Shown here one piece after another: positions 4,448 through 36,544 of a stretch of 64,000 nt of DNA (positions are counted from its first letter, which is position 1; each line of letters begins with the position of its first letter). Both the position numbers and the translations under genes were made by a program. The DNA comes from Escherichia phage JS98. The notes under the pieces were generated by a model, which was given only the letters and a program-made list of their open reading frames with translations, was not told the DNA's origin and made no database searches. The stretch is from sequence record NC_010105.1; one strand, 5' to 3'.

Positions 4448-6022
4448 ATGGCAAACTTTAATACAATATTAAGTTTTCTTAAGCCATGGGCTAATGAAGA
4501 CGAAAAAGAATATAAACAACAAATTAATAACAATTTAGAGTCTGTCACTGCACCTAAGCTTGATGATGGCGCTCGCGAAATTGAAACCCAAGAGCAAAAT
4601 ATTCCTTATAACGCTCTTATGCAACAAATGTTTGGTAGTAATGAGCCTGAAGTTAAAAACACCAGGGAACTCATTGATACCTACCGTAATTTGATGAACA
4701 ACTATGAAGTCGATAACGCAGTTCAAGAAATTGTGTCTGACGCTATTGTCTACGAGGATGATAAAGAAGTAGTTGCATTAAATTTAGACGGGACAGATTT
4801 CAGTCAATCAATTAAAGATAAAATTTTGGCTGAATTTAGTGAAGTTTTGAATCTTTTAAATTTCCAACGTAAAGGCACTGACCATTTCCAACGTTGGTAT
4901 GTAGACTCGAGAATATTCTTTCATAAAATTATAAACCCTAAAAAAATGAAAGATGGCGTACAAGAGCTTCGACGCTTAGACCCGCGCCAAGTCCAATATA
5001 TTCGTGAAATTGTTACACGTATGGAAGATGGTGTTAAAATTGTAGATGGGTACCGCGAGTTTTTCGTTTACGATACTGGTCATGAAAGTTATTGTGCTGA
5101 TGGACGCATTTATTCAGCCGGGACTAAAGTTAAAATTCCTCGTGCTGCTGTAGTTTATGCACATTCTGGATTATTAGATTGTTGTGGTAAAAACATCATT
5201 GGCTATTTGCAACGTGCTATTAAGCCTGCAAACCAGCTTAAATTGATGGAAGACGCAATGGTCATCTACCGTATTACACGTGCTCCTGACCGTCGTGTGT
5301 TTTATATCGATACAGGTAATATGCCTTCACGTAAGGCTGCAGCACAAATGCAACATATCATGAACACGATGAAAAACCGTGTGGTATATGATGCTTCGAC
5401 CGGTAAAATTAAAAACCAGCAACATAATATGTCAATGACTGAAGACTATTGGTTGCAACGTCGAGACGGTAAAGCGGTAACAGAAGTTGATACCATGCCT
5501 GGCGCCACAGGTATGAGTGATATGGATGACGTTCTTTATTTCCGCACAGCACTTTATCGTGCACTGCGTATTCCAGAGTCACGTATCCCTAGTGAATCTA
5601 ATTCAGGCGTTATGTTTGATGCCGGTACAGCAATCACTCGTGATGAGTTGAAATTTGCTAAATGGATTCGACAGCTCCAAAATAAATTTGAAGAAATTTT
5701 CTTAGACCCATTAAAAACAAACCTCATTCTTAAAAAGATTATTACAGAAGATGAGTGGGAAAGAGAAATAAATAATATTAAAGTTACGTTCAACCGTGAT
5801 AGCTATTTCAGTGAAATGAAAGATGCGGAAATCATGGAACGCAGAATCAATATGCTAACGATGGCTGAACCATTTATTGGTAAGTATATTTCACATCAAA
5901 CGGCTATGAAAGATTTCCTTCAGATGACTGACGAAGAAATTAATCAAGAAGCTAAGCAAATTGAAGAAGAGTCTAAAGAGGCTCGTTTCCAAAACCCAGA
6001 TGAAGAAGAAGAGGATTTCTAA
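4448..6022 (+). CDS. 20: Portal vertex protein gp20
   Basis: 524 aa, same length as T4 gp20; gene order 19-20-67. Confidence 0.92.
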
Positions 6023-6297
6023 TGGAAGATTTAATCGAAGCTATTAAATCAAACGACCTCGTAGCAGTTCGTAAAGCAGCAGGCCCGCTTATCGAATCTC
6101 GAGTAGCCGCTTTGATTGAAGCCCGTAAAGCAGAAATTGCTCGCTCCGTTATGATTGAAGGCGAAGAAGCCGATAAAGATGACGAAGACGAAGATAAAGA
6201 CGAAAAATCCGATAAAGCAGATAAGAAAGACAAAAAAGAATCTGACGATGCGGATGAAGGTGATGACGACGATGAAGACGACGAGGACGACGAATAA
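6022..6297 (+). CDS. 67: Prohead core protein gp67-like with extended poly-acidic C-terminal tail
   Basis: Position between 20 and 68; 91 aa; last ~40 aa almost entirely D/E/K. Confidence 0.7.
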
Positions 6298-6725
6298 TGT
6301 TCCTTATCCCTGATGATTACGAATTAACTCTAGAAAGCGTAGAGGCCAAAATTCCAGAAGCACAGGGACGTTTTGCTACTCTTTCTGAAGCCCTCGAGAA
6401 AAGCGATATAAATAATCTTGTAGAGAACATGATTGCTGATGGTGATATCGATACAGCTATCGCCATTGCCTCTTTAAATGAAAATATGGCTCTTAACGAA
6501 TTTATCGTTAAGCATGTCTCTTCTAAAGGTGAGCTTACTCGTACTAAAGATATTAAAACCCGTCAACGCAACGCTTATCAAACGACTGGGTTGTCTAAAG
6601 CAAAACGCCGTCAGATTGCTCGCAAAGCGTCTAAAACCAAACGTGCTAACCCGTCTACTCAAGTACGTGCTGAACGTAAGCGTAAGAAAGCTCGTTCTAA
6701 ACGTAAAGCCTTTGGACTTAACTAA
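6297..6725 (+). CDS. 68: Prohead core protein gp68
   Basis: 142 aa, basic C-terminus, position before gene 21 as in T4. Confidence 0.7.
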
Positions 6726-25997: not shown

Positions 25998-28124
25998 CTA
26001 CATTTTGAATTTATTTGGTAAAGAAGAGATGTCCAAAGATGCAGCAAGGATTTCCATAGCCTCATTACTTTCTGAAACAGATTCTGAAACTAGGAATTCT
26101 TTAAACCCGTTCATCAATTTAACTTCACCGGTTTCCATCAGATGGTCACCATCGTAAACGGACTCACTGAGTTCTGAAGGAGATGTCACTGTAGCTTCCA
26201 TAAGGTATTTGTGAGATACTCTATCATTCATAGCAAAAGCCGCTACTTTATCAACCTTCAACAATAATCCTCGCGGAAGGATAATTTCTGCTTCTTCGGA
26301 ATATTCTGTAAGGTCACCAGGAGCGATAACTTTAACTGCTTCAGCACCTCGAATAACCATACCGATTTCAGCAATCCTGTCTGCAGGGCCTTCAGGTGCA
26401 ATTGGATTACCGAACTCGTCTTCTTCCCATTCTACCTCTTCATCATCAACTTCGCCTACATCAGATGAACTACCACTGGCTAATTTAAACAACTCATCAG
26501 CGGAGGATAAAGAACCTTCATCACCAACAAAAACTGCTTGGTTGTCGAGGGCCATATAATTTTTACCAAATTCGCCAAAGATATTAGGCTTTAATGAAGC
26601 AGACACAAAGTTCTTAAAGTAAAATGTTTTGTTATCAATATTATGGCGCAGAATTTTGTATGGTAAATCCTGACCACGATACAAAATAGTACCCTTAGGA
26701 AGTTTAATACCCTTGGTAAATGCTGAGTCTAAATCCTTAATCAATTTAATAGCTGTTGTATTGTTTTCGGATTCAGGTTTACCTAAAAGGAATAAGTTCA
26801 TAGGAGCATATTCAGCCGCACAATATTCAATAATGGCATTGCTTTCGTCTTTGGTCAAGCCCTTAGGTTTAATGAGCTCGCCTGAATAAGCATATGCATC
26901 GCTAATAGAATCGTTAATCAGTTTATAAACGGCTTCCATAGCGAAAGCAATTCGGGATGCTTTCTCTGAAGGAGACCCCTGAAAACGGGCACTCAGGTTA
27001 TTAACAATTCTCTTAATAATATCCAGACTATTGGTAGTATTGATTTGAGAAAGGCCACTTAAAAGTCTATCGACTTCCGTATTAAAAAATGCCATATTAT
27101 TAGAGTAAATTTCAAACCCTTGTTTATCTCTATTAGCATAATTTAGTTTAAATTTACTATCAGTCATTAAAGCGTGCGTGAGAGCAATGGTGTATCTAAA
27201 GTTGGCAAGGTCCTCACTCTTAGATTTAAACTGAGAGGCCTGACGCATTTTAGTAATAGCACCTTTTTTAAAGTTCTGACTAATCTGCTCAATACCTTCG
27301 TTCTCAGGGCCTTCGGCCGAGTGAACAGGGACAGAAGCTTCAAACTCGTTATAAACCTGCAATTCTTTAGGTGATAAAGTTTCAGGTTCGGCAGTAGAAT
27401 ACTGCGCTGCTGCAGCCATACGACGGGAAATCTTAGTACGAGAAATAACAGCCTTATCGGTACGTTTCTCTTCAACCTGTGCAATAGATGCTGCTACGGC
27501 TTCGACCTTACTTACAGCCTGGCCGGTTTTCTTAGAAACATAAACTTCACCGACTTTAGACTCAACCTTGGTATAAAGGTCCGCATCAATTTCAGGCATA
27601 CCCTTGATATCTTCGATATTAGTGCCACGACGTGCTAAAAGAACGTATGTATGTTTACCACTAAACTGGAACATATCATCGACAACTTTAAACTTACCAC
27701 CGGTACGGGCCATCGCCAAACGAGCTAATACACGCTGAACAGTAGGGCCTTTACCTTTCATTTTCTTGGTAGGGAAACGGAATAAAACCGCATCCATTTT
27801 AAGTTTATTTACTTGTTCGTATATCGTATCGAAAATAGTATTCAATGTACCAAGTGGGTCGGAACCAAGGCCACCTTTGAGTTCAGCCGGGGCACCCTTG
27901 CTCGACAAACTCATTAAAATAACATGGACATATTTGTCGCCTGGCTTAACCATTTTAATAGCGTCTCCTTGAGACGCATAAGATACCATACGAGCAACCA
28001 GGTTATCGTTACCCGGTGCATGGATAGAGAAAATCTGTGGAATACCGGAACCCGGTTTAAGATTTGTTACTGGATAGTTTTTAGCGGAATCACTATCAAA
28101 AACCTCGTTTAAATTTTCCATCAT
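25998..28124 (-). CDS. Alt-family ADP-ribosyltransferase, paralog 2 (708 aa)
   Basis: Shares N-terminal (M.E.LNEVF.S) and C-terminal blocks with the upstream alt: RGQ/RAQ, FYFKNFVSASL, EIILPRGLL.K.DK. Confidence 0.85.
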   Translation of the reverse strand: MMENLNEVFDSDSAKNYPVTNLKPGSGIPQIFSIHAPGNDNLVARMVSYASQGDAIKMVKPGDKYVHVILMSLSSKGAPAELKGGLGSDPLGTLNTIFDTIYEQVNKLKMDAVLFRFPTKKMKGKGPTVQRVLARLAMARTGGKFKVVDDMFQFSGKHTYVLLARRGTNIEDIKGMPEIDADLYTKVESKVGEVYVSKKTGQAVSKVEAVAASIAQVEEKRTDKAVISRTKISRRMAAAAQYSTAEPETLSPKELQVYNEFEASVPVHSAEGPENEGIEQISQNFKKGAITKMRQASQFKSKSEDLANFRYTIALTHALMTDSKFKLNYANRDKQGFEIYSNNMAFFNTEVDRLLSGLSQINTTNSLDIIKRIVNNLSARFQGSPSEKASRIAFAMEAVYKLINDSISDAYAYSGELIKPKGLTKDESNAIIEYCAAEYAPMNLFLLGKPESENNTTAIKLIKDLDSAFTKGIKLPKGTILYRGQDLPYKILRHNIDNKTFYFKNFVSASLKPNIFGEFGKNYMALDNQAVFVGDEGSLSSADELFKLASGSSSDVGEVDDEEVEWEEDEFGNPIAPEGPADRIAEIGMVIRGAEAVKVIAPGDLTEYSEEAEIILPRGLLLKVDKVAAFAMNDRVSHKYLMEATVTSPSELSESVYDGDHLMETGEVKLMNGFKEFLVSESVSESNEAMEILAASLDISSLPNKFKM

Positions 28125-30212
28125 TTACCCTTGGATGAATTTTTCTGGTATGCCATAGAGGTCTATGCATGAAGCCAAAAGAGGCAGTACGTCAAACCGT
28201 GTAGATTTAACAAATGAATCAAAAGATACAGGGCTTTCGGAAGTATCGAAGTCATCTTGGTATACGACCAACTCACCAGTTTCCATTAGTACGTCACCAT
28301 CATACACTACAGATTCTTGAAGCTCATCTGATGTCATAACTTCAGCTTGAATAAATTTATTGTTAGACACCGCCCCAGAACCAGTATTGGCTGATGCATC
28401 CACGATTTTATCTATTTTTACAAGTAGCCCGCGTGGTAAAATTATTTCCTTTTCGTTGGCATGCATGCTTAATTGGCCAGGATAAATCACGTTAACCTTA
28501 TGAGCGCCACTAATAGCCCAGCCAACATCAACACGGATTTGATCCGGTGCATACATATGTGTACGCACTTGACTAGCCGAGATGGTAACGCCTTCGTCAT
28601 TATTATCAATGTTTAATTCTTTTCGAACATCATCGGAAGCAAGACCAATAGCCGCATTCTCTTTAAAGCCACCAAAAATGATTGGAGCCAATGAGGTTGA
28701 AACATAGTTTCTAAAATAGAATACCTTATTTTTAACTAATGCTTCGTAGATAGGCGCGCGCAAAGATTGTGCTCTATAAACCATTATTCCTTCAGGTAAA
28801 CGGTCACCATTTTTAAAGGCAGAATCCATTCCATCAATAGCACGTTTAACTTCGCTTTCGTCCAAAACTTCATAAAAGCCCGGTTTATAACGGCCAAGAA
28901 GGACATTGTTAATATCAATATAAGCTGAAGAGGCGTATTCTCTGATAGCTCGTTTTTCTGCAAGTGTATATTGTTTAGGGTCTCGAGATGTTGTTATATT
29001 AAGAATTTCTCTAGTTGATTCTATAGCGTATGTATACATTATCTTAGACAAGAATGAAGACTTACGTTGTTTCCATACTCTTTCACTGTTTTCATTCAAT
29101 ATCTCTTTTTCCAAATGGAAATTGTCTTTTCTATAATCTTCAAACCAATCACTTTTAATAGATTCTGCGATTTCATTAGCAGCTTCAACAAAGGCGGCTA
29201 AAGCTTTAACTGACGTGGTTTTTTCATTTTTAATTTTTTTGACAAATTTTTCTAAAGAAGAGTTAATTTTATCACCGTAAGAAACTTCATCCGCAAATTT
29301 AAATGAATCATCCATAGTATTATAAATTTTAAAATCAATAGCCGTAGCCAGCTTATCCTTAGCTGTTTCGGATGATAATGATAATTCAACTTCGGCTGCT
29401 TGTGGAATTAATTCCGCCGTAGCAGGCGCACTGAACTCATTGGCAGTTTGTTCATATTTCTGAAATAATTCACCTTCATTACGGTCTGCTTCTAATGACT
29501 GGCTTGCCGCAATCGCACGACGAGAAATCTTAGTCTTGGTTATAACCATTTTATCAGTGCGACGTTCTTCAACTTTAGCAATACTGCCGGCAATAGCGGT
29601 TTCTTTAGTAACCTGAGCGCCTTCTTTTTTAGAAATATAAACTTCACCAACATCAGAATCTACCTTAGTATATAATTCGGCATTAATTCCAGGCATACCT
29701 TTGATATCTTCGATATCAGCTTGTTTACGAACTACTAGGATATAAGTATGTTTACCGGTAAATTGGTACATGGCTGGAACTACTTTAAAACGTCCACCGG
29801 TTTTCTGTGCTACCAAACGTTGGATAATCCGTTGGACAATAGGTCCTTGTCCTTTCATTTTCTTGGTTGGAAAACGGAACATCACAGCATCCATACGAAG
29901 CTTTTTAACTTGTTCGAATACTACGTCGAAAATGGTATTAATAGCATCAATAGGAGTAGGGCCTAATCCACCTTTAAGTTCGGCTGGAGTACCTTTAGCT
30001 GATAAACTCATCAAAATAACGTGGGCATATTTATCACCTAATTTAACCTGTTTAATAGCATCGCCTTCAGAGGCATAAGATACCATACGAGCAACTAATT
30101 GGGATTCGGCGTCGCCAATCTTCCAAATCTGGGGTACTTTAAGTTTTGGGTTTAAGTTTACAGTAGGCAGGGTGCCTTCGGACTCAAACACCTCATTCAA
30201 TTGTTCGGTCAT
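28125..30212 (-). CDS. alt: Alt ADP-ribosyltransferase (capsid-packaged, injected), paralog 1 (695 aa)
   Basis: Position upstream of gene 30 as in T4; R-S-E type ART motifs (YRAQ, FYFRNYVSTSL, EKEIILPRGLLVKIDK). Confidence 0.85.
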   Translation of the reverse strand: MTEQLNEVFESEGTLPTVNLNPKLKVPQIWKIGDAESQLVARMVSYASEGDAIKQVKLGDKYAHVILMSLSAKGTPAELKGGLGPTPIDAINTIFDVVFEQVKKLRMDAVMFRFPTKKMKGQGPIVQRIIQRLVAQKTGGRFKVVPAMYQFTGKHTYILVVRKQADIEDIKGMPGINAELYTKVDSDVGEVYISKKEGAQVTKETAIAGSIAKVEERRTDKMVITKTKISRRAIAASQSLEADRNEGELFQKYEQTANEFSAPATAELIPQAAEVELSLSSETAKDKLATAIDFKIYNTMDDSFKFADEVSYGDKINSSLEKFVKKIKNEKTTSVKALAAFVEAANEIAESIKSDWFEDYRKDNFHLEKEILNENSERVWKQRKSSFLSKIMYTYAIESTREILNITTSRDPKQYTLAEKRAIREYASSAYIDINNVLLGRYKPGFYEVLDESEVKRAIDGMDSAFKNGDRLPEGIMVYRAQSLRAPIYEALVKNKVFYFRNYVSTSLAPIIFGGFKENAAIGLASDDVRKELNIDNNDEGVTISASQVRTHMYAPDQIRVDVGWAISGAHKVNVIYPGQLSMHANEKEIILPRGLLVKIDKIVDASANTGSGAVSNNKFIQAEVMTSDELQESVVYDGDVLMETGELVVYQDDFDTSESPVSFDSFVKSTRFDVLPLLASCIDLYGIPEKFIQG

Positions 30213-30234
30213 AATAATTCCTCTTTAATAACCG

Positions 30235-30242
30235 TATTTATG
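30235..30242 (-). promoter_or_regulatory. Variant late promoter (CATAAATA on minus strand) upstream of alt
   Basis: One mismatch to TATAAATA, ~22 nt upstream of alt ATG, followed by GAGGA SD. Confidence 0.4.
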
Positions 30243-30248
30243 CCATAA

Positions 30249-30264
30249 AAGGCCCGAAGGCCTT
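30249..30264 (-). terminator. Hairpin AAGGCC-cgaa-GGCCTT plus U-run on minus strand, upstream of alt promoter
   Basis: 6-bp GC stem; minus-strand TTTT follows. Confidence 0.5.
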
Positions 30265-30433
30265 AAAGTGGTAGCAACGTACGATATACTTCGAATGTCG
30301 GGCCTTTTTCATAGCCGTCAAACACGTCTTTAAAATCGGCAAAAGCTATTTCATCCTCAAACTCTAGGATGATTTGAGAGGCCGCAGTGTTATTTGTGTT
30401 TGTTACAACAATTGTTTCTAAATAAGCTTTCAT
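30263..30433 (-). CDS. Hypothetical small protein (56 aa from internal Met)
   Basis: ORF immediately after ligase stop; start chosen to avoid overlap. Confidence 0.35.
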   Translation of the reverse strand: MKAYLETIVVTNTNNTAASQIILEFEDEIAFADFKDVFDGYEKGPTFEVYRTLLPL

Positions 30434-30434
30434 A

Positions 30435-31958
30435 TTATAGTCCAGTTTGAGACCAATCACCAAATACATCTTCAAATGTATCAGCTTCAGTTTTATCGAA
30501 ACGCCAACCTTTAATAATTGGAAGGAAAATACCTACAGTATCAGTACGTCCTTTAGAATGAACCCAACCATTACATTCACAGTCAGCAATACGTCCAATC
30601 AACTTACCTTCACGAGCTTGTTTCATAAGAAGTTCACGGTCTAAATCAGGGCGGTCTTCTAATGGAATCAACACCTTTTTACCTGATTTATCTTTCTTAT
30701 GGGTAGTATCTTTAAAGCCTGAGCCGCAGTCACTTGTAATTCGACGACAACGTGATACCAACTCGACACCGCCAAGTTTGTTAGGGTCCTTCGAGTGTTC
30801 ATAATAACCTACCACTTCTAAAGCGATATCGATTACTTCTTTGAACTTGATAAGATTCTTAGAACGGCGGTTTTCCCAGTAGGAGTCCATGTTCTTAAGG
30901 ATAATACCTTCCAGGCCTTGGTCGACATATTTCTTATAAACGACTTTAGCTTCGTCAAGATTATTGACCCATTGGTTTTCGATAGCTTCAACACGCGTTG
31001 TACCATGCAATACGACATTATGAGCAACCATAAGTTCTAAGGCAGTAAAGCGTACATCGTACTTATCGCCTTTAATTTTACCTTCGGAATATACGACATC
31101 CAATGGGACATAATCCCACGCCTGTAACACCATACCTGCTGCTTCGGTTGGGGTAATAGTTCCTTGAAGAGCCTTGTTAGCCAACCCGTTTGAAGTAGAA
31201 CGATCGGCTACGGTTTGGAATTCCTTGGCTTTACTTAATTCAGGAAGTTCCTCATCAAACATACTAAACAAATCATTAGATGCTTTAGGTTCTACTTTAG
31301 GAGTGTGGTAAACTAATTCGCCATCAATCATAACACCATTAGGATGGCGCTGTCGAGCTTCTTCGGTCATGGCCATTAATTCGGCCGCCAAAAGATTAAG
31401 CCCTTGGTATTCATTACCACCACGAGTAAGGAATGTTACGCCATCGTTACGAACTTCAGCAAAACAACGAGCACCGTCAGCTTTTAATTGGGCGAACGCG
31501 GGCCATTTAATATTTTTCTTAATCAAATCTTCATCATAAGAACTAGCCAACATTTGAGGTTGTTCAGGGATTAAACCTTTCCAAACCTTGTTAGCAATAG
31601 AAATCGATGCACCACATTCAAGGTCACGCATCATTACGCGACGTAATACCTCAGCGTCAGGACCCTTGGCATCAGCAATAATTTGGGCAAGCTCTTCAAT
31701 AGCAGCATTACCCGTAATCTTACGGGTGGCTAATGTGAACTCAGCGAAATCAAGAAGGTCTTCAAGTGTAATCATACCAAAGGATTGAGACGTAAATCCA
31801 GGTTCAGGCCACTTTTTAATACCGTAGTTCAGACGACGGGTATAAGCCATACGATATACACGTTTCAGAAGCTCGTTATCCTTTTCACGAGCAATAATAG
31901 CTTCTTTAGCTTTAGTAGAATCAATAGAAGCAATTTCGTTTAAAATATCTAAAATCAT
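30435..31958 (-). CDS. 30: DNA ligase gp30 (ATP-dependent)
   Basis: 507 aa; MILDILNEIASI...; adenylation motif KADGARCF; matches T4 ligase along length. Confidence 0.95.
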   Translation of the reverse strand: MILDILNEIASIDSTKAKEAIIAREKDNELLKRVYRMAYTRRLNYGIKKWPEPGFTSQSFGMITLEDLLDFAEFTLATRKITGNAAIEELAQIIADAKGPDAEVLRRVMMRDLECGASISIANKVWKGLIPEQPQMLASSYDEDLIKKNIKWPAFAQLKADGARCFAEVRNDGVTFLTRGGNEYQGLNLLAAELMAMTEEARQRHPNGVMIDGELVYHTPKVEPKASNDLFSMFDEELPELSKAKEFQTVADRSTSNGLANKALQGTITPTEAAGMVLQAWDYVPLDVVYSEGKIKGDKYDVRFTALELMVAHNVVLHGTTRVEAIENQWVNNLDEAKVVYKKYVDQGLEGIILKNMDSYWENRRSKNLIKFKEVIDIALEVVGYYEHSKDPNKLGGVELVSRCRRITSDCGSGFKDTTHKKDKSGKKVLIPLEDRPDLDRELLMKQAREGKLIGRIADCECNGWVHSKGRTDTVGIFLPIIKGWRFDKTEADTFEDVFGDWSQTGL

Positions 31959-32251
31959 TTTACCGTCCTTACAGTTTGTGTACTTCTATTATAAGCTACT
32001 TCATCTAAAAGCTCATTTAAAGTTTTGTGATACGATATAATACGCTTATCTTTAATATCATATTCAGTAACATACATAAATCCACGCCGAACACATTGGA
32101 TAAAGATATCTTCATCTTTGGCTTGGAAATATACAGGGTTCAATCGAAGGAATTGCCTAAAGTTTCCATAATCATGGGATTTAGGGATTCCATCAGTAAT
32201 AGTATGAACAACAAACATATTAACCTCGTGCAATCCATTCAACGGCTGCAT
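31955..32251 (-). CDS. Hypothetical protein (30.1-like position)
   Basis: 98 aa ORF directly upstream of ligase. Confidence 0.45.
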   Translation of the reverse strand: MQPLNGLHEVNMFVVHTITDGIPKSHDYGNFRQFLRLNPVYFQAKDEDIFIQCVRRGFMYVTEYDIKDKRIISYHKTLNELLDEVAYNRSTQTVRTVK

Positions 32252-32858
32252 TATTACGAAGGGATTCGATTGCTGCGATATCGTCCCATGAATTAACCTT
32301 TACGGCTAAATTAGGTTTAAAGTCGCGTTCACCACGGGCTAACCAATAAACTTGGATATCCATGAGAATATTAGATGCGGCGTCACAGTGGTGAGCCAAA
32401 TCGTCAACATAAAACTTAATGCGTTTACCGTATGTATTTTTAGCTCTTATGAACAGGTCTTCTTTTGATTCTGAATGACCACACATCAGAATCTCCTTGA
32501 ATGCGCCAGGGAACAAAGCATTCAAATTGAATTGTCTATTCAGCAGAGCATCAATTGAGTCGCCTAGCGCAGTCACGGCTACAAAATCGAAGTCTTTTTT
32601 GAGCTTGTTGATGTGTTTTAATGCGTCCATGTAAGGGGACAGATAACGAATAAAATCTGACTGGTTATATTTCTCGATTAAACGGGCGCCTAATTCGTCG
32701 TCACAATTAAACAGTTCGCCTGGAGATAAGAAACGTTCGTCCTGAATCATATTCAAAATATGTTCTAAAGGCAAATTATATTTCTGTGCGAAATAAGGCA
32801 AGCCGGACTGCCAACTTAAACATACTCCATCGATATCTGTTAAGATAACTGGTTTCAT
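32220..32858 (-). CDS. HAD-superfamily phosphatase/nucleotidase-like protein
   Basis: N-terminal motif I ILTDIDGV (DxDG) typical of HAD hydrolases; 212 aa. Confidence 0.6.
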   Translation of the reverse strand: MKPVILTDIDGVCLSWQSGLPYFAQKYNLPLEHILNMIQDERFLSPGELFNCDDELGARLIEKYNQSDFIRYLSPYMDALKHINKLKKDFDFVAVTALGDSIDALLNRQFNLNALFPGAFKEILMCGHSESKEDLFIRAKNTYGKRIKFYVDDLAHHCDAASNILMDIQVYWLARGERDFKPNLAVKVNSWDDIAAIESLRNNAAVEWIARG

Positions 32859-33322
32859 AATAAATCTCTCAATTTGTTTAGGATGTCGATAAACTCTTTT
32901 TCAGTTAGTATTGTATCACATTCTTTGAGGTGGCTTGCCATTGAATGCTTTAAAACCTTACCTTTAGTGGCTTGTAAAGCTTCTCGGAATCCTTTGTTCT
33001 GGAGCGCTGCTTCAAAATACGCACTTTCGTAAAGCTCTTTCCACGCTTCGGAATATCTTGAAAACGGGGTCCCAAGCCAGAACAACGTGCCACGGTCCTG
33101 AGCTCTAGCATAAGCTCGACCAGCTTTTTGCGCGTCTAACCCGGACATCCTAAATATACGTCTTTGTTGTTCAACATTTTTCACCTTACACCCTTGGAGG
33201 AATCCTTCGAGTCCACCAAATTGGATACCATCCATAACGAAAGGCCATTTAGCAAAGTTACTTAATGCACATGATGGCCACGGAAAGTTACTTCTAATTT
33301 CTAACTCAGACATCTTTGACAC
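32855..33322 (-). CDS. NADAR/YbiA-like (DUF1768-like) protein
   Basis: Motif LSNFAKWPF..DG...(13 aa)...EGFLQ..K resembles the NADAR core (SNF..P...DG...EhyFQ..K); 155 aa. Confidence 0.5.
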   Translation of the reverse strand: MSKMSELEIRSNFPWPSCALSNFAKWPFVMDGIQFGGLEGFLQGCKVKNVEQQRRIFRMSGLDAQKAGRAYARAQDRGTLFWLGTPFSRYSEAWKELYESAYFEAALQNKGFREALQATKGKVLKHSMASHLKECDTILTEKEFIDILNKLRDLL

Positions 33323-33521
33323 TTATAATTTCAACATCAGCCCAATAACCATAACCCGGCAGTCGGTCTTCAATGGATAAACCACCATCATGTTTAGGCA
33401 TTTTAATTGTCATGATATAAGGTTCTAAATGGTCCGCCGTATGAGGAGAAACATCAGTCACACGATAAGTCACTTCAACCATTTCCGTACCTAACAATTT
33501 CTGAATCAGTTTCTTGACCAT
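33306..33521 (-). CDS. Hypothetical protein (71 aa)
   Basis: ORF in compact minus-strand early array. Confidence 0.4.
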   Translation of the reverse strand: MVKKLIQKLLGTEMVEVTYRVTDVSPHTADHLEPYIMTIKMPKHDGGLSIEDRLPGYGYWADVEIISVKDV

Positions 33522-33522
33522 A

Positions 33523-33717
33523 TTATCCTCGCTTCAAACATTTGATTACAGACAATTCAGAACCCATGCGAACGTCTTCAGTGCCATCGACCCATAGGAC
33601 CGTGTAGGCTTCTTTAATAGTAGCATTACCCAATTTAAAAGCAGGTAAAACCTTTGAAATCATACCAGGAATACCTACACCTTTTAACTGAACGGTTTGT
33701 GATAAGAATAGTTGCAT
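33523..33717 (-). CDS. Hypothetical protein (64 aa)
   Basis: ORF in compact minus-strand early array. Confidence 0.4.
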   Translation of the reverse strand: MQLFLSQTVQLKGVGIPGMISKVLPAFKLGNATIKEAYTVLWVDGTEDVRMGSELSVIKCLKRG

Positions 33718-34004
33718 TAGAACCTCATCTGGAATCCATGTGATTTAACATTACCGCCGTAGATGTCAGAAGTATTGACTTCGCGGGCGACACTTGGGTC
33801 GATGTTAATATCGCGGTTGAGCTTAGTGATTGCTAGGGTGTCACGACCATTGACTGTACGGAATTCTACTGGACAAACCACATCAGCATAGGCCTTAATG
33901 GATTCACGAGTAGGCTGTTTGTCAGCAGGAACATCTTTACCTGCCTTAGAGAAAACAACTTCACAGAAATTTTTACGAGTATCGAAATAAGTGGTCATAA
34001 ACAT
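33717..34004 (-). CDS. Hypothetical protein (95 aa from Met with GAGGA SD)
   Basis: ORF track 33717..34037; internal Met preceded by SD chosen. Confidence 0.45.
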   Translation of the reverse strand: MFMTTYFDTRKNFCEVVFSKAGKDVPADKQPTRESIKAYADVVCPVEFRTVNGRDTLAITKLNRDINIDPSVAREVNTSDIYGGNVKSHGFQMRF

Positions 34005-34018
34005 AATATTTTCCTCAA

Positions 34019-34036
34019 AGGAGGCCGAAGCCTCCA
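34019..34036 (-). other. Hairpin GGAGGC-cgaa-GCCTCC between ORFs
   Basis: 6-bp GC stem with CGAA loop directly after stop of 34046..34411. Confidence 0.4.
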
Positions 34037-34045
34037 TTTTTAAGA

Positions 34046-34411
34046 TTAGATATCAAATTCATTCAGAACTACATCAAAGATTGCTTCCAGGTGTTCAGGT
34101 TTAGCACGGTTGCTCAGGATGTGACGAATCCAGGTTTTAACCAGAAGCTTACGATTATCACCGTTCCAGCAAGGATGGGTACCTAAATCACGTTGACGGA
34201 AATCATCATCCAAAGCGATTTTAAAAGTAGAACCTTCCATAGTGATTGAAACCGTGATACCATTTTCAAAGCGCATATAAACGTAGTTAGGAGTCATGCA
34301 CTGTTCGATTTCGCACACTGTGCCGTTGTTGTGTTTCCACAGACAAATAACTTCAGAAGAACCAGCGATACCGTTAGAAACATATTTACGTTCGAAGTTG
34401 ATGTAGTTCAT
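34046..34411 (-). CDS. Hypothetical protein (121 aa), PeSL-flanked cassette ORF
   Basis: Preceded by early promoter/stem-loop and a leader identical to that of the next ORF. Confidence 0.5.
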   Translation of the reverse strand: MNYINFERKYVSNGIAGSSEVICLWKHNNGTVCEIEQCMTPNYVYMRFENGITVSITMEGSTFKIALDDDFRQRDLGTHPCWNGDNRKLLVKTWIRHILSNRAKPEHLEAIFDVVLNEFDI

Positions 34412-34447
34412 TTTATTCTCCAGTTTGTTTTCGTATTATTTGGTACA
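34409..34447. repeat. 39-bp direct repeat, copy 1 (identical leader/RBS/start of two adjacent ORFs)
   Basis: CATTTTATTCTCCAGTTTGTTTTCGTATTATTTGGTACA identical to 34815..34853. Confidence 0.85.
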
Positions 34448-34484
34448 GGTCTATAATAACACAACCTGTACCAAAGTAAAACAT
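34412..34484 (-). promoter_or_regulatory. PeSL-like early promoter with 12-bp perfect inverted repeat (TTTGGTACAGGT...ACCTGTACCAAA)
   Basis: IR arms 34439..34450 and 34464..34475 flank a -10-like TATTAT; TTTTAC -35-like 17 nt upstream. Confidence 0.45.
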
Positions 34485-34817
34485 TTATTTCACAACATTC
34501 CAATTTTTCATATCAAGTTTACCAACTTTTTTCATCTGAGCAATCAGACGTTCAGCACGTGTACGGGCATTAACGTAATAGAATTCACCAATTTTGTTTT
34601 CTTCAATACGGCCAGTAATTACAGTTTTCAGTTCATAAATCCAACCTGTAAAGAAGTTGTGAAGCTCGATGGTAAATGTGAAATCAGTACCCATACCTTC
34701 AGTTGTTTCAACTTCGATGATATCACCTTCAACTGCAGTCAGGACCCACATGGTTTCTTGATATTCACCGTTGAAACATTTAGCTTTAACAGATGCGTTC
34801 AGGTTTACAGTTTTCAT
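34485..34817 (-). CDS. Hypothetical protein (110 aa), PeSL-flanked cassette ORF
   Basis: ORF with same leader as 34046..34411. Confidence 0.5.
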   Translation of the reverse strand: MKTVNLNASVKAKCFNGEYQETMWVLTAVEGDIIEVETTEGMGTDFTFTIELHNFFTGWIYELKTVITGRIEENKIGEFYYVNARTRAERLIAQMKKVGKLDMKNWNVVK

Positions 34818-34853
34818 TTTATTCTCCAGTTTGTTTTCGTATTATTTGGTACA
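34815..34853. repeat. 39-bp direct repeat, copy 2
   Basis: Exact copy of 34409..34447. Confidence 0.85.
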
Positions 34854-34887
34854 TGTCTATAGTATCATGCCTACCGGAGATGTATAC
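34818..34887 (-). promoter_or_regulatory. PeSL-like early promoter (GTATAC-N17-TACTAT) driving 34485..34817
   Basis: -10 TACTAT at 34859..34864 with conserved GCATGATACTATAGAC core. Confidence 0.4.
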
Positions 34888-34904
34888 CCTTTTTTTAAAG
34901 ATTT

Positions 34905-34931
34905 AGAAACAAAAATGGGACTCCGAAGAGT
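34905..34931 (-). terminator. Rho-independent terminator after 53-aa ORF (GGGACTC-ttcg-GAGTCCC + U-run)
   Basis: 7-bp stem, UUCG loop, ATTTTTGTTT on minus strand. Confidence 0.7.
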
Positions 34932-34939
34932 CCCATAAC

Positions 34940-35101
34940 TTATGCCTGAGGCTTACCAAAGCAAGCAGCATCTGCACGCAATACTGCACGAGCACGAGCT
35001 TGAAGCTTATCAACTACCTGATTGATACGCTTGTTGGACGCACGCTTGTAACCAGCGCGTTTAGAGGTACCGTCAACTACTTTAACTTCTTTCTTAGCCA
35101 T
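34940..35101 (-). CDS. Hypothetical small basic protein (53 aa, below ORF-track cutoff)
   Basis: Hand-translated MAKKEVKVVDGTSKRAGYKRASNKRINQVVDKLQARARAVLRADAACFGKPQA; followed by strong terminator. Confidence 0.4.
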   Translation of the reverse strand: MAKKEVKVVDGTSKRAGYKRASNKRINQVVDKLQARARAVLRADAACFGKPQA

Positions 35102-35453
35102 TTTTAAATCTCTTAAATTAGGATGCAGGACTTATTGACATTGCCTGCGCAAGCCCTCAAGGGGAACATAGGTTTTAGATATTTAACGACAGGATAACCA
35201 TAAACCTCGTCATCATAGCTCTTATCTGTTGCACACCGTTAGCTTAAAGGTTCCGGGTTCGATTTCTCGAGGATAAGATATATACTGATGGATATATAGG
35301 CCTTGAGGCGTACTCCCGATTGGCCATCACCTCGGGGTAGCATGCACTTGCCGCTATAAAATACATTCAAGAGGTACACCGTAAAACTGCTGGGGTCTTA
35401 AAACTATAATGATTCGCAAATCATTAATCAGACAGTTCGACGGCTCCTCGATT

Positions 35454-35702
35454 TTACTTCAGGGTAATAATAAAATGACGTACTGCTTTACGAGCTGCTG
35501 AAGCCAAAGGCTTAGCATATTTCAGTTCATCTTTTGCTTCCAGTTCAGCAGCCAGAGTAGCCTGAGCAGGATTAAGATGTTTGAAATAACGCAGGATTTC
35601 CAGTGCTTCGGCTTCAACATCAATAGATGCGCCGTAGTTTTCGTGACCGTTGTTCCAAGCGTTGCGTTGCAGTTCAAGAGCGTGATTCAGATGTTTGTTC
35701 AT
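35454..35702 (-). CDS. rIII: rIII lysis-inhibition accessory protein
   Basis: MNKHLNHALELQRNAWNNGHENYGASIDVEAEALEILRYFKHLNPAQ... matches T4 RIII; start at internal Met (ORF track to 35756); 82 aa. Confidence 0.82.
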   Translation of the reverse strand: MNKHLNHALELQRNAWNNGHENYGASIDVEAEALEILRYFKHLNPAQATLAAELEAKDELKYAKPLASAARKAVRHFIITLK

Positions 35703-35853
35703 TTTAAATTCTCGATTCGAGATAAAGATTGGTGGACACGTTCTTCTGAATTTCACTTCCTTTCGGCAAGTCTCTCAGTTGTAGTCCACCGCTTAGGATT
35801 AGCTAACCCCATACACCAGCAAAGCTCTGTATGACATTAGCCAATCCATATTA

Positions 35854-35861
35854 TTATTTAT
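35854..35861 (-). promoter_or_regulatory. Late promoter (TATAAATA on minus strand) between gene 31 and rIII
   Basis: Plus-strand TATTTATA directly after gene 31 stop. Confidence 0.4.
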
Positions 35862-35862
35862 A

Positions 35863-36186
35863 TCACTTATAAAGACACGGAATAGCTTTATAGTGACAGG
35901 TAACGAATTTCTGTTTAATTTCTTTAGGCTGTTTAATACCCAATGCAACTAAAGGATGTGGCACGTTAGCAATCTTACCAACAGGAAGTGGAGTCAAATC
36001 GCCTACTTCACAAAACCCTTCAGGGACATCAGGTCCTACAGAATAAATTTCACAAAGTTCAGGGATTTCACCTTGATGAAGTTTGCCAATAACGATACCA
36101 GATGCAGTAGTTTCTTCATCGCCAGCTTGTTTTGGTTCGGAAACGAGAATAACATATTCTCCGACCGCTTTAATAGGAAGTTCCAT
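35863..36186 (-). CDS. 31: Co-chaperonin gp31 (GroES analogue)
   Basis: 107 aa; [22 protein letters not shown]...[33 protein letters not shown] matches T4 gp31. Confidence 0.92.
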
Positions 36187-36244
36187 ATTTAATCCATGTT
36201 GTTTTGTTGATAGATTAATAATAACACGCTATTCTTAAAGCATA
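36187..36244 (-). promoter_or_regulatory. Putative MotA-type middle promoter for gene 31 (ATGCTTTA box, TATTAT -10)
   Basis: Minus-strand ATGCTTTA then TATTAT ~12 nt downstream. Confidence 0.35.
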
Positions 36245-36544
36245 TTACAGGACAAGCAGAGTTTCAGTCTGAAGCCCATTAATAGAAATCAGTTTATCGA
36301 AACGGAACGAGCGCCAGTCATTAACCTTGGTATCAAATACACGAATATAATTAACCGGTTCTTTATTAGCTTCTGGGCCCGGGGCTTGAATTTCTTTATA
36401 CGGGAGGAGGTCCAGGTCGCGAGTACAAGTCATACGACGAACACTACCATCCGCCTTTTCAAACAGAACTTCGTGAGTACCTACAGACAGAATAGTCTTG
36501 GCTTTTTCACGGAGCCGAATAGTTTCTTGTTCAGTTAAAATCAT
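36245..36544 (-). CDS. Hypothetical protein (31.1-like position)
   Basis: 99 aa ORF. Confidence 0.5.
   Translation of the reverse strand: MILTEQETIRLREKAKTILSVGTHEVLFEKADGSVRRMTCTRDLDLLPYKEIQAPGPEANKEPVNYIRVFDTKVNDWRSFRFDKLISINGLQTETLLVL

Follow-up and report, generated by a model that had tools for sequence, protein, structure and literature searches.

The window analysed here, a stretch of 64,000 nucleotides of Escherichia phage JS98 (NC_010105.1), contains between positions 25998 and 36186 a block in which all genes lie on the minus strand and follow the T4 order alt–alt.1–30–30.1–30.2–30.3–30.4…30.8–30.9–rIII–31. All features described below are on this strand. Over 31900-33600 the sequence shares 98.9% identity with Escherichia phage JS10 (Dhakavirus, Tevenvirinae), and the order alt-30-30.1-30.2-30.3-30.4 is shared by the window, T4 and JS10. 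An earlier note on this DNA had described a NADAR-like gene and a HAD-family phosphatase gene beside the ligase and alt genes. Pfam and PHROG searches bear out these neighbours, identifying gene 30, the ATP-dependent DNA ligase (30435..31958; PF01068, E 1.9e-23; PHROG 114), and alt, the packaged ADP-ribosyltransferase (28125..30212; PF03496, E 1.3e-28; PHROG 802); a second full-length alt paralogue occupies 25998..28124. The two genes of interest are 30.3 (32855..33313) and 30.2 (32220..32858), annotated in JS10 with 459 and 639 nt, respectively. The note had the HAD gene upstream of the NADAR gene, which has to be reversed: with both on the minus strand the HAD gene is the downstream one, and its ATG overlaps the 30.3 stop codon in an ATGA (32855..32858), preceded 7 nt upstream by a GAGAG run that resembles a Shine-Dalgarno sequence. 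On the other side lies gene 30.4 (33306..33521; 71 aa; PHROG 2042), whose final 8 nt overlap the start of 30.3. In a scan of 30000-36500 for promoters and terminators, promoter-like sites were rarer than in shuffles, and the sole notable feature was a hairpin resembling a terminator (34936-34915), situated upstream of genes 30.8 to 30; the scan gave no clue to function.

The open reading frame of gene 30.3 (32855..33322) contains ALSNFAKWPFVMDGIQFGGLEGFLQGCK. Both this frame and the LSNFAKWPF-type motif quoted for it were located as previously described, but the length of 155 aa holds only for a GTG start at 33322, and the ATG at 33313 gives 152 aa. Judged by sequence comparison, the ATG is almost certainly the true start, because the T4 and JS10 genes are 459 nt long and full-length homologues of at least 83% identity start at or just after MSELEIR. 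The LSNFAKWPF motif (residues 17-25; 33239..33265) forms the N-terminal part of the NADAR core and aligns with FSNFAAWPI of YbiA; its S18, N19 and F20 are invariant in the alignment of close homologues and conserved in ten distant phage homologues. The catalytic glutamate E36 (codon GAA, 33206..33208) corresponds to E36 of T4 AdfN and E48 of YbiA, and the phosphate-coordinating lysine K43 (codon AAG, 33185..33187) to K43 of AdfN and K55 of YbiA. Neither residue varies among the close homologues or among ten more distant ones (36-47% identity), which come from Acinetobacter, Vibrio, Aeromonas, Klebsiella, Yersinia, Cronobacter and Agrobacterium phages. H123 (codon CAT, 32945..32947), the last-beta-strand histidine that marks phage NADARs, lies in strand 120-123 of the predicted model and is likewise invariant in close and distant phage homologues. 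The YbiA residue placed opposite H123 differs by method, being the His of VEHT with hhalign and a later His with MAFFT. The C-terminal helix (residues 138-152; 32858..32902) is intact, as seen in the model (helix 138-151) and in the full-length alignment with T4. The internal T4 ORF 30.3' was considered as an additional gene, and only a 53-aa remnant is present in the window; at 55% identity in the alternative frame, compared with 85% for the main one, this remnant probably does not represent a gene.

Gene 30.3 belongs to Pfam family Phage_30_3 (PF08010; E 2.3e-65, 219 bits vs a cut-off of 36), and its product aligns with T4 gp30.3 at 85% identity, gapless and to the last residue, both proteins having 152 aa. 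The 23 substitutions (15% of residues) cluster around positions 55-63 and 125-131, and none affects an invariant position. Single-sequence searches against PDB were non-significant for both gp30.3 and gp30.2, so that profiles and predicted folds were needed. Thus, phmmer with gp30.3 gave E 0.78 for YbiA, and the single sequence had no match to PF08719 (NADAR) at E ≤ 0.1, its Pfam family being the separate PF08010; one member of the gp30.3 family also matches PF08719. With a profile of nine homologues, YbiA (2b3w) was the only meaningful PDB match (E 0.0046), and hhalign of the gp30.3 profile with E. coli YbiA gave 87% probability (E 3.7e-6, 104 columns), pairing E36 with E48 and K43 with K55. 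The AF2 model of gp30.3 (pLDDT 81, pTM 0.78; residues 1-16 at low confidence, pLDDT 45-59) had YbiA 2b3w as its top Foldseek match in PDB (E 1.7e-5, TM 0.63), followed by the Phytophthora NADAR with ADP-ribose (PnNADAR, 8bau; probability 0.99) and the DarG1-type NADAR of Geobacter lovleyi (8bat; 0.96); no other PDB structure exceeded a probability of 0.12. Profile, predicted fold, catalytic residues and literature agree, and membership of gp30.3 in the NADAR superfamily is confirmed, with the alpha+beta YbiA fold in which small beta-hairpins flank the core helices. The NADAR-like assignment of the earlier note, drawn from the motif, therefore stands on a family match, a profile alignment and a YbiA-type predicted fold that retains E36 and K43.

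The function of this family has been studied in T4. The gp30.3 proteins were classed as phage NADARs in work on the NADAR superfamily (PMC11125620, PMC11543638), a subfamily defined by a His in the last strand where YbiA has Glu and DarG1 has Asp. T4 gp30.3 was later named AdfN, for anti-DarT factor NADAR (Johannesman et al., Nat Commun 2025, PMC11825919). The purified T4 protein hydrolyses ADP-ribose off guanine in DNA and is inactive on T-ADPr and C-ADPr (PMC11125620 [Toxins 2024], PMC12945103); the activities that these papers report for it are restricted to guanine-linked ADP-ribose in DNA and RNA (PMC11125620, PMC12945103). Deletion and complementation showed that AdfN is needed for resistance of T4 to the DarTG1 toxin-antitoxin defence, and the E36A and K43A mutants were impaired (PMC11825919). 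In RB69, adfN is inactivated by a frameshift that removes the last 15 residues, leaving this phage DarTG1-sensitive, and expressed AdfN-T4 restores RB69 plaquing on DarTG1 hosts (PMC11825919). During T-even infection, the T4 protein is both necessary and sufficient against DarTG1. In T4 transposon data (HIDEN-SEQ, 2025 preprint), 30.3 is dispensable on K-12, with 27 of 28 sites hit, and essential only with DarTG1, under which insertions are strongly depleted (log2FC -7.25, adjusted p 0; Data S6). Under DarTG1, T4 30.4 shows a mild loss of insertions (log2FC -1.79; HIDEN-SEQ), probably as a polar effect on the adjacent downstream 30.3.

Taken with these reports, the ORF at 32855..33313 is with high confidence the Dhakavirus orthologue of T4 30.3/adfN, encoding a minimal single-domain N-glycosidase of the NADAR/YbiA fold and a predicted guanine-ADP-ribose DNA glycohydrolase. 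In the proposed mechanism, infection would trigger the host DarTG1 system, and the DarT1 toxin would ADP-ribosylate guanine N2 in phage DNA and block its replication. AdfN would then hydrolyse the bond between guanine and ADP-ribose, freeing ADP-ribose and restoring replicable DNA, with E36 expected to bind the distal ribose and K43 the phosphate, and with the phage-specific H123 in the last strand. From the 85%-identical T4 protein we infer that the window allele is a functional adfN that would hydrolyse G-ADPr and confer DarTG1 resistance, because it carries every sequence and structural feature that parts active from inactive alleles. The tentative remark in the earlier note on NADARs reversing the ADP-ribosylation of DNA is correct (PMC11543638), and the anti-defence role it suggested has been shown experimentally for the T4 orthologue, which reverses DarT1 guanine ADP-ribosylation of phage DNA. 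What counts against the full mechanism is that T4 AdfN fails to neutralise DarT1 outside T-even infection (PMC11825919, PMC11125620); its authors state that AdfN-T4 may require an additional T-even protein (PMC11825919). The finding on 30.3 is thus correct, yet already known, since the counter-defence gene has been published and the phage carrying it here is closely related to T4. It annotates the 30.3 gene of this phage as a functional-looking adfN allele and predicts resistance to DarTG1-type defence, which is of use in host-range prediction and phage-therapy design and adds no new biology.

Among characterised systems, T4 AdfN is the nearest to the window protein, with which it shares the length of 152 aa, E36/K43/H123, a complete C-terminal helix and the genomic location between 30.4 and 30.2; it differs in that the window phage is a Dhakavirus (JS10-like) and T4 a Tequatrovirus. 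The NADAR domain of DarG1 (E. coli C7; Geobacter/Trichlorobacter lovleyi, 8bat; Schuller et al., Mol Cell 2023, PMC11543638) shares the fold, the conserved Glu and Lys and the reaction, guanine de-ADP-ribosylation. However, DarG1 has N-terminal extensions that form an electropositive channel and is co-encoded with its toxin, whereas the phage enzyme consists of the core only and is an orphan; DarG1 also has Asp in place of the phage His. The phage enzyme cannot stand in for DarG1 in uninfected cells (PMC11825919, PMC11125620, PMC12945103). E. coli YbiA (2b3w) is the best structural match, and its SNFA...E...K core aligns with gp30.3, but identity is only about 20-27%, and YbiA has a last-strand Glu with an extra insertion after it. 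YbiA acts on riboflavin intermediates and sits in a LexA-controlled operon.

The likeness to YbiA raises the question of whether the phage enzyme acts mainly on small molecules, either as a riboflavin-intermediate N-glycosidase or as a degrader of low-molecular-weight immune signals derived from ADPr. Such a role in immune signalling was proposed for phage NADARs before the work on DarT (Iyer et al., 2022, PMC9503650), and in Aeromonas phage G2 the 30.3 homologue adjoins NAD-salvage genes. In addition, the only NCBIfam match of gp30.3 is TIGR02464, the riboflavin-intermediate N-glycosidase family, albeit a weak one (E 0.036) whose 14.3 bits are far under the cut-off of 73.7. The phage subfamily has replaced the YbiA-type Glu by His (PMC11125620, PMC11543638), and the activity of the T4 orthologue on G-ADPr in DNA, together with its DarTG1-specific phenotype, fully explains why the gene is retained. 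We therefore regard a predominantly small-molecule function as highly improbable and favour the reading of gp30.3 as a DNA-directed AdfN, which may have a secondary activity on small molecules besides DNA G-ADPr.

The position of 30.3 near alt invites a further explanation, in which the NADAR would reverse or limit the modifications introduced by the phage's own ADP-ribosyltransferases, namely the two Alt paralogues here and ModA/ModB elsewhere. The distance of about 2.6 kb between adfN and alt, the presence of two full-length Alt paralogues in the window and the recurrence of the alt-30-30.2-30.3 neighbourhood in an Acinetobacter phage are all consistent with such a homeostasis. However, Alt modifies arginine on proteins, and no NADAR is known to reverse arginine ADP-ribosylation. 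The substrates reported for T4 gp30.3 contain guanine-linked ADP-ribose, with T-ADPr and C-ADPr left uncleaved (PMC11125620, PMC12945103). In T4, which can dispense with 30.3 on K-12 lacking DarTG1, alt was unaffected in the DarTG1 screen (log2FC -0.01; HIDEN-SEQ). Gene order argues in the same direction. In seven of ten distant phages (Phi1, Vibrio, Agrobacterium, two Aeromonas, Yersinia TG1 and Klebsiella Jiaodavirus phages) the stretches around 30.3 have no annotated Alt gene, and apart from Phi1 they have no ligase homologue within 4-5 kb of 30.3 either. Homeostasis of self-inflicted ADP-ribosylation is thus extremely improbable, and of the two roles offered in the earlier note it finds no support, nor does the reasoning from co-occurrence with the phage's own Alt enzymes, the enzyme acting on a DNA modification installed by the host and T4 alt being neutral in the screen. 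As a separate observation from the same data, T4 adfA/61.2 gave a log2FC of -0.34 under DarTG1, which was not significant (HIDEN-SEQ).

The downstream gene 30.2 (32220..32858; PHROG 420, E 2.4e-70) encodes a protein of 212 aa, which its predicted model and its motifs assign to the subfamily-IA HAD phosphatases with a C1 cap. Its ORF starts with MKPVILTDIDGV. HAD motif I, ILTDIDGV (residues 5-12; 32823..32846), lies at the start of the ORF as the earlier note had described, and provides the nucleophile D8 (32835-32837) and the acid/base D10 (32829-32831). In the model (pLDDT 93) a helical C1 cap accompanies a Rossmannoid core of the HAD type, and each of the four motifs occupies the place expected of a HAD phosphatase, which confirms the family proposed for it before. 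Motif I (D8-I-D10-G-V12) follows strand 4-7, motif II (T96) ends strand 91-96, motif III (K132) stands immediately before helix 133-146, its canonical position, and motif IV (D152-D153) ends strand 147-152. Across 46 homologues of 38-98% identity these residues do not vary, except that position 96 is T or S. By established HAD enzymology, a second Asp in motif I points to phosphatases or phosphomutases and not to dehalogenases. Taken together, gp30.2 is predicted to be a catalytically competent HAD-IA phosphatase, most probably a nucleotide monophosphatase.

The closest comparison for gp30.2 is with the 5'(3')-deoxyribonucleotidases cdN and mdN (NT5C; 2jao, 1mh9, 6g2n, 3bwv). The deoxyribonucleotidase-like 3bwv, cdN and mdN were among its best superpositions, and its motif I aligns with NMDGVLADF of cdN (2jao). 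The invariant W16 falls at the position of the Phe in this DGVLADF, which in cdN and mdN stacks on the base; we take the equivalence of W16 and the base-stacking Phe, proposed from the alignment, as a lead. The match to Pfam NT5C remained below the gathering score (E 0.1; 12.9 bits vs a cut-off of 24.8), and neither the gp30.2 profile against 2jao (E 0.14) nor the single sequence against cdN (E 0.19) was significant. Since the NT5C match is sub-threshold, gp30.2 is called an NT5C-like HAD-IA phosphatase and not an NT5C member; the likeness, as it appears in the predicted model, is structural only. T4 gp30.2 has an additional C-terminal tail rich in Pro, Tyr and Asn, and the window protein is the short form without it. 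NCBIfam contained no match to gp30.2, PADLOC none to gp30.2 or gp30.3, and a literature search for the term 'gp30.2' found nothing.

The overlap of the 30.3 stop and the 30.2 start suggests that the two enzymes might form one module, in which gp30.2 would either supply the T-even-specific requirement of AdfN in vivo or remove or reuse the ADP-ribose or nucleotide set free by it. The authors' remark on an additional T-even protein (PMC11825919) would fit such a factor. The two genes are adjacent in all 13 close Tevenvirinae loci (at least 84% gp30.3 identity) as well as in Acinetobacter and Morganella phages, and in a Cronobacter phage only two small ORFs separate them. Their phyletic spread is similar, with 1509 phage records containing 30.3 and 1446 containing the widely conserved 30.2. 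Against a shared function, 71 sites with insertions in T4 30.2 were neutral under DarTG1 (log2FC -0.12, p 0.61; HIDEN-SEQ Data S6), compared with -7.25 for 30.3, and purified AdfN is active alone in vitro (PMC11825919, PMC11125620). Such a two-enzyme module is therefore very unlikely. Similarly, there is a very small chance that the translationally coupled gp30.2 has an ADP-ribose or nucleotide role in counter-defence, directed at a DarT-like or other nucleotide-targeting system absent from the T4 screens, or that it is part of a host- or background-dependent T-even requirement of AdfN.

Gene order was compared more widely for this question. The search of viral contigs for related loci recovered close relatives only (12 loci at ≥84% identity), and the distant contexts were taken individually from the phage collection. 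In Phi1, 30.3 is joined directly to the ligase gene. Together, the adjacency survey and the T4 transposon data rule out an obligatory 30.2-30.3 operon. The linkage of 30.2 and adfN has the look of a T4-type gene order that was inherited, and not of a functional requirement, because the adjacency is lost in seven of the ten distant phages sampled, the same seven as above, in which the 4-5 kb around 30.3 contain no homologue of 30.2.

Insertions in gene 30.4 of T4 were moderately depleted under DarTG1 (log2FC -1.79, adjusted p 0.014; HIDEN-SEQ Data S6). The depletion most likely reflects polarity on adfN, whose start overlaps 30.4; less probably, gp30.4 itself contributes. In the window, the equivalent of 30.4 is located at 33306-33521 (minus strand). 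T4 30.3', annotated as an internal out-of-frame ORF, is represented in the window by a 53-aa remnant (32950-33111, minus strand) without the first 22 residues. Identity to T4 is 55% in the 30.3' frame and 85% in the main frame. It is thus unlikely that this overprinted ORF represents a genuine gene.

The neighboring gp30.2 comprises 212 aa in the window (32220-32858, minus strand), whereas T4 gp30.2 comprises 278 aa (5475-6311 of the T4 locus, L001) and carries a Pro/Tyr/Asn-rich C-terminal tail that is missing from the window protein. The gp30.2 family falls into two length classes of ~200-220 aa and ~260-340 aa.

Homologs of 30.7 (34046-34411, PF06919) and 30.8 (34485-34817, PF06019) are encoded on the minus strand of the window, whereas JS10 has a gap of ~110 nt without annotated gene between 30.6 and 30.9. 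The 30.1-30.5 stretch is nevertheless 98.9% like JS10, which points to local mosaicism. A strong terminator-like hairpin (34915-34936, minus strand; 9 bp stem with 5 GC pairs, T-run) follows a 53-aa 30.9-like ORF. Together with a promoter-like site (34868-34841), this predicted hairpin may mark the start of a 30.8-to-30 transcription unit.

T4 possesses a single alt and the short duplication remnants alt.-1 and alt.-2, whereas the window harbors two complete Alt-type ADP-ribosyltransferase paralogs with PF03496 matches (25998-28124, 708 aa; 28125-30212, 695 aa; both minus strand). They are arranged in tandem, are both full-length and share 41% identity.

The gp30.3-type NADAR family comprises 1091 representatives (50% clustering, E <= 1e-3). 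Among them, some are duplicated in tandem, and some are fused to a GDSL lipase or to BspA-type leucine-rich repeats (proteins P0142, P0145, P0164, P0259). In Aeromonas phage vB_AdhaM_G2 (L022 4965-9500), NAD-salvage genes lie near the NADAR gene, with a ribose-phosphate pyrophosphokinase ~400 nt downstream and a nicotinamide phosphoribosyltransferase farther downstream, beyond the former. This NAD-salvage setting differs from that in the window and is possibly meaningful.
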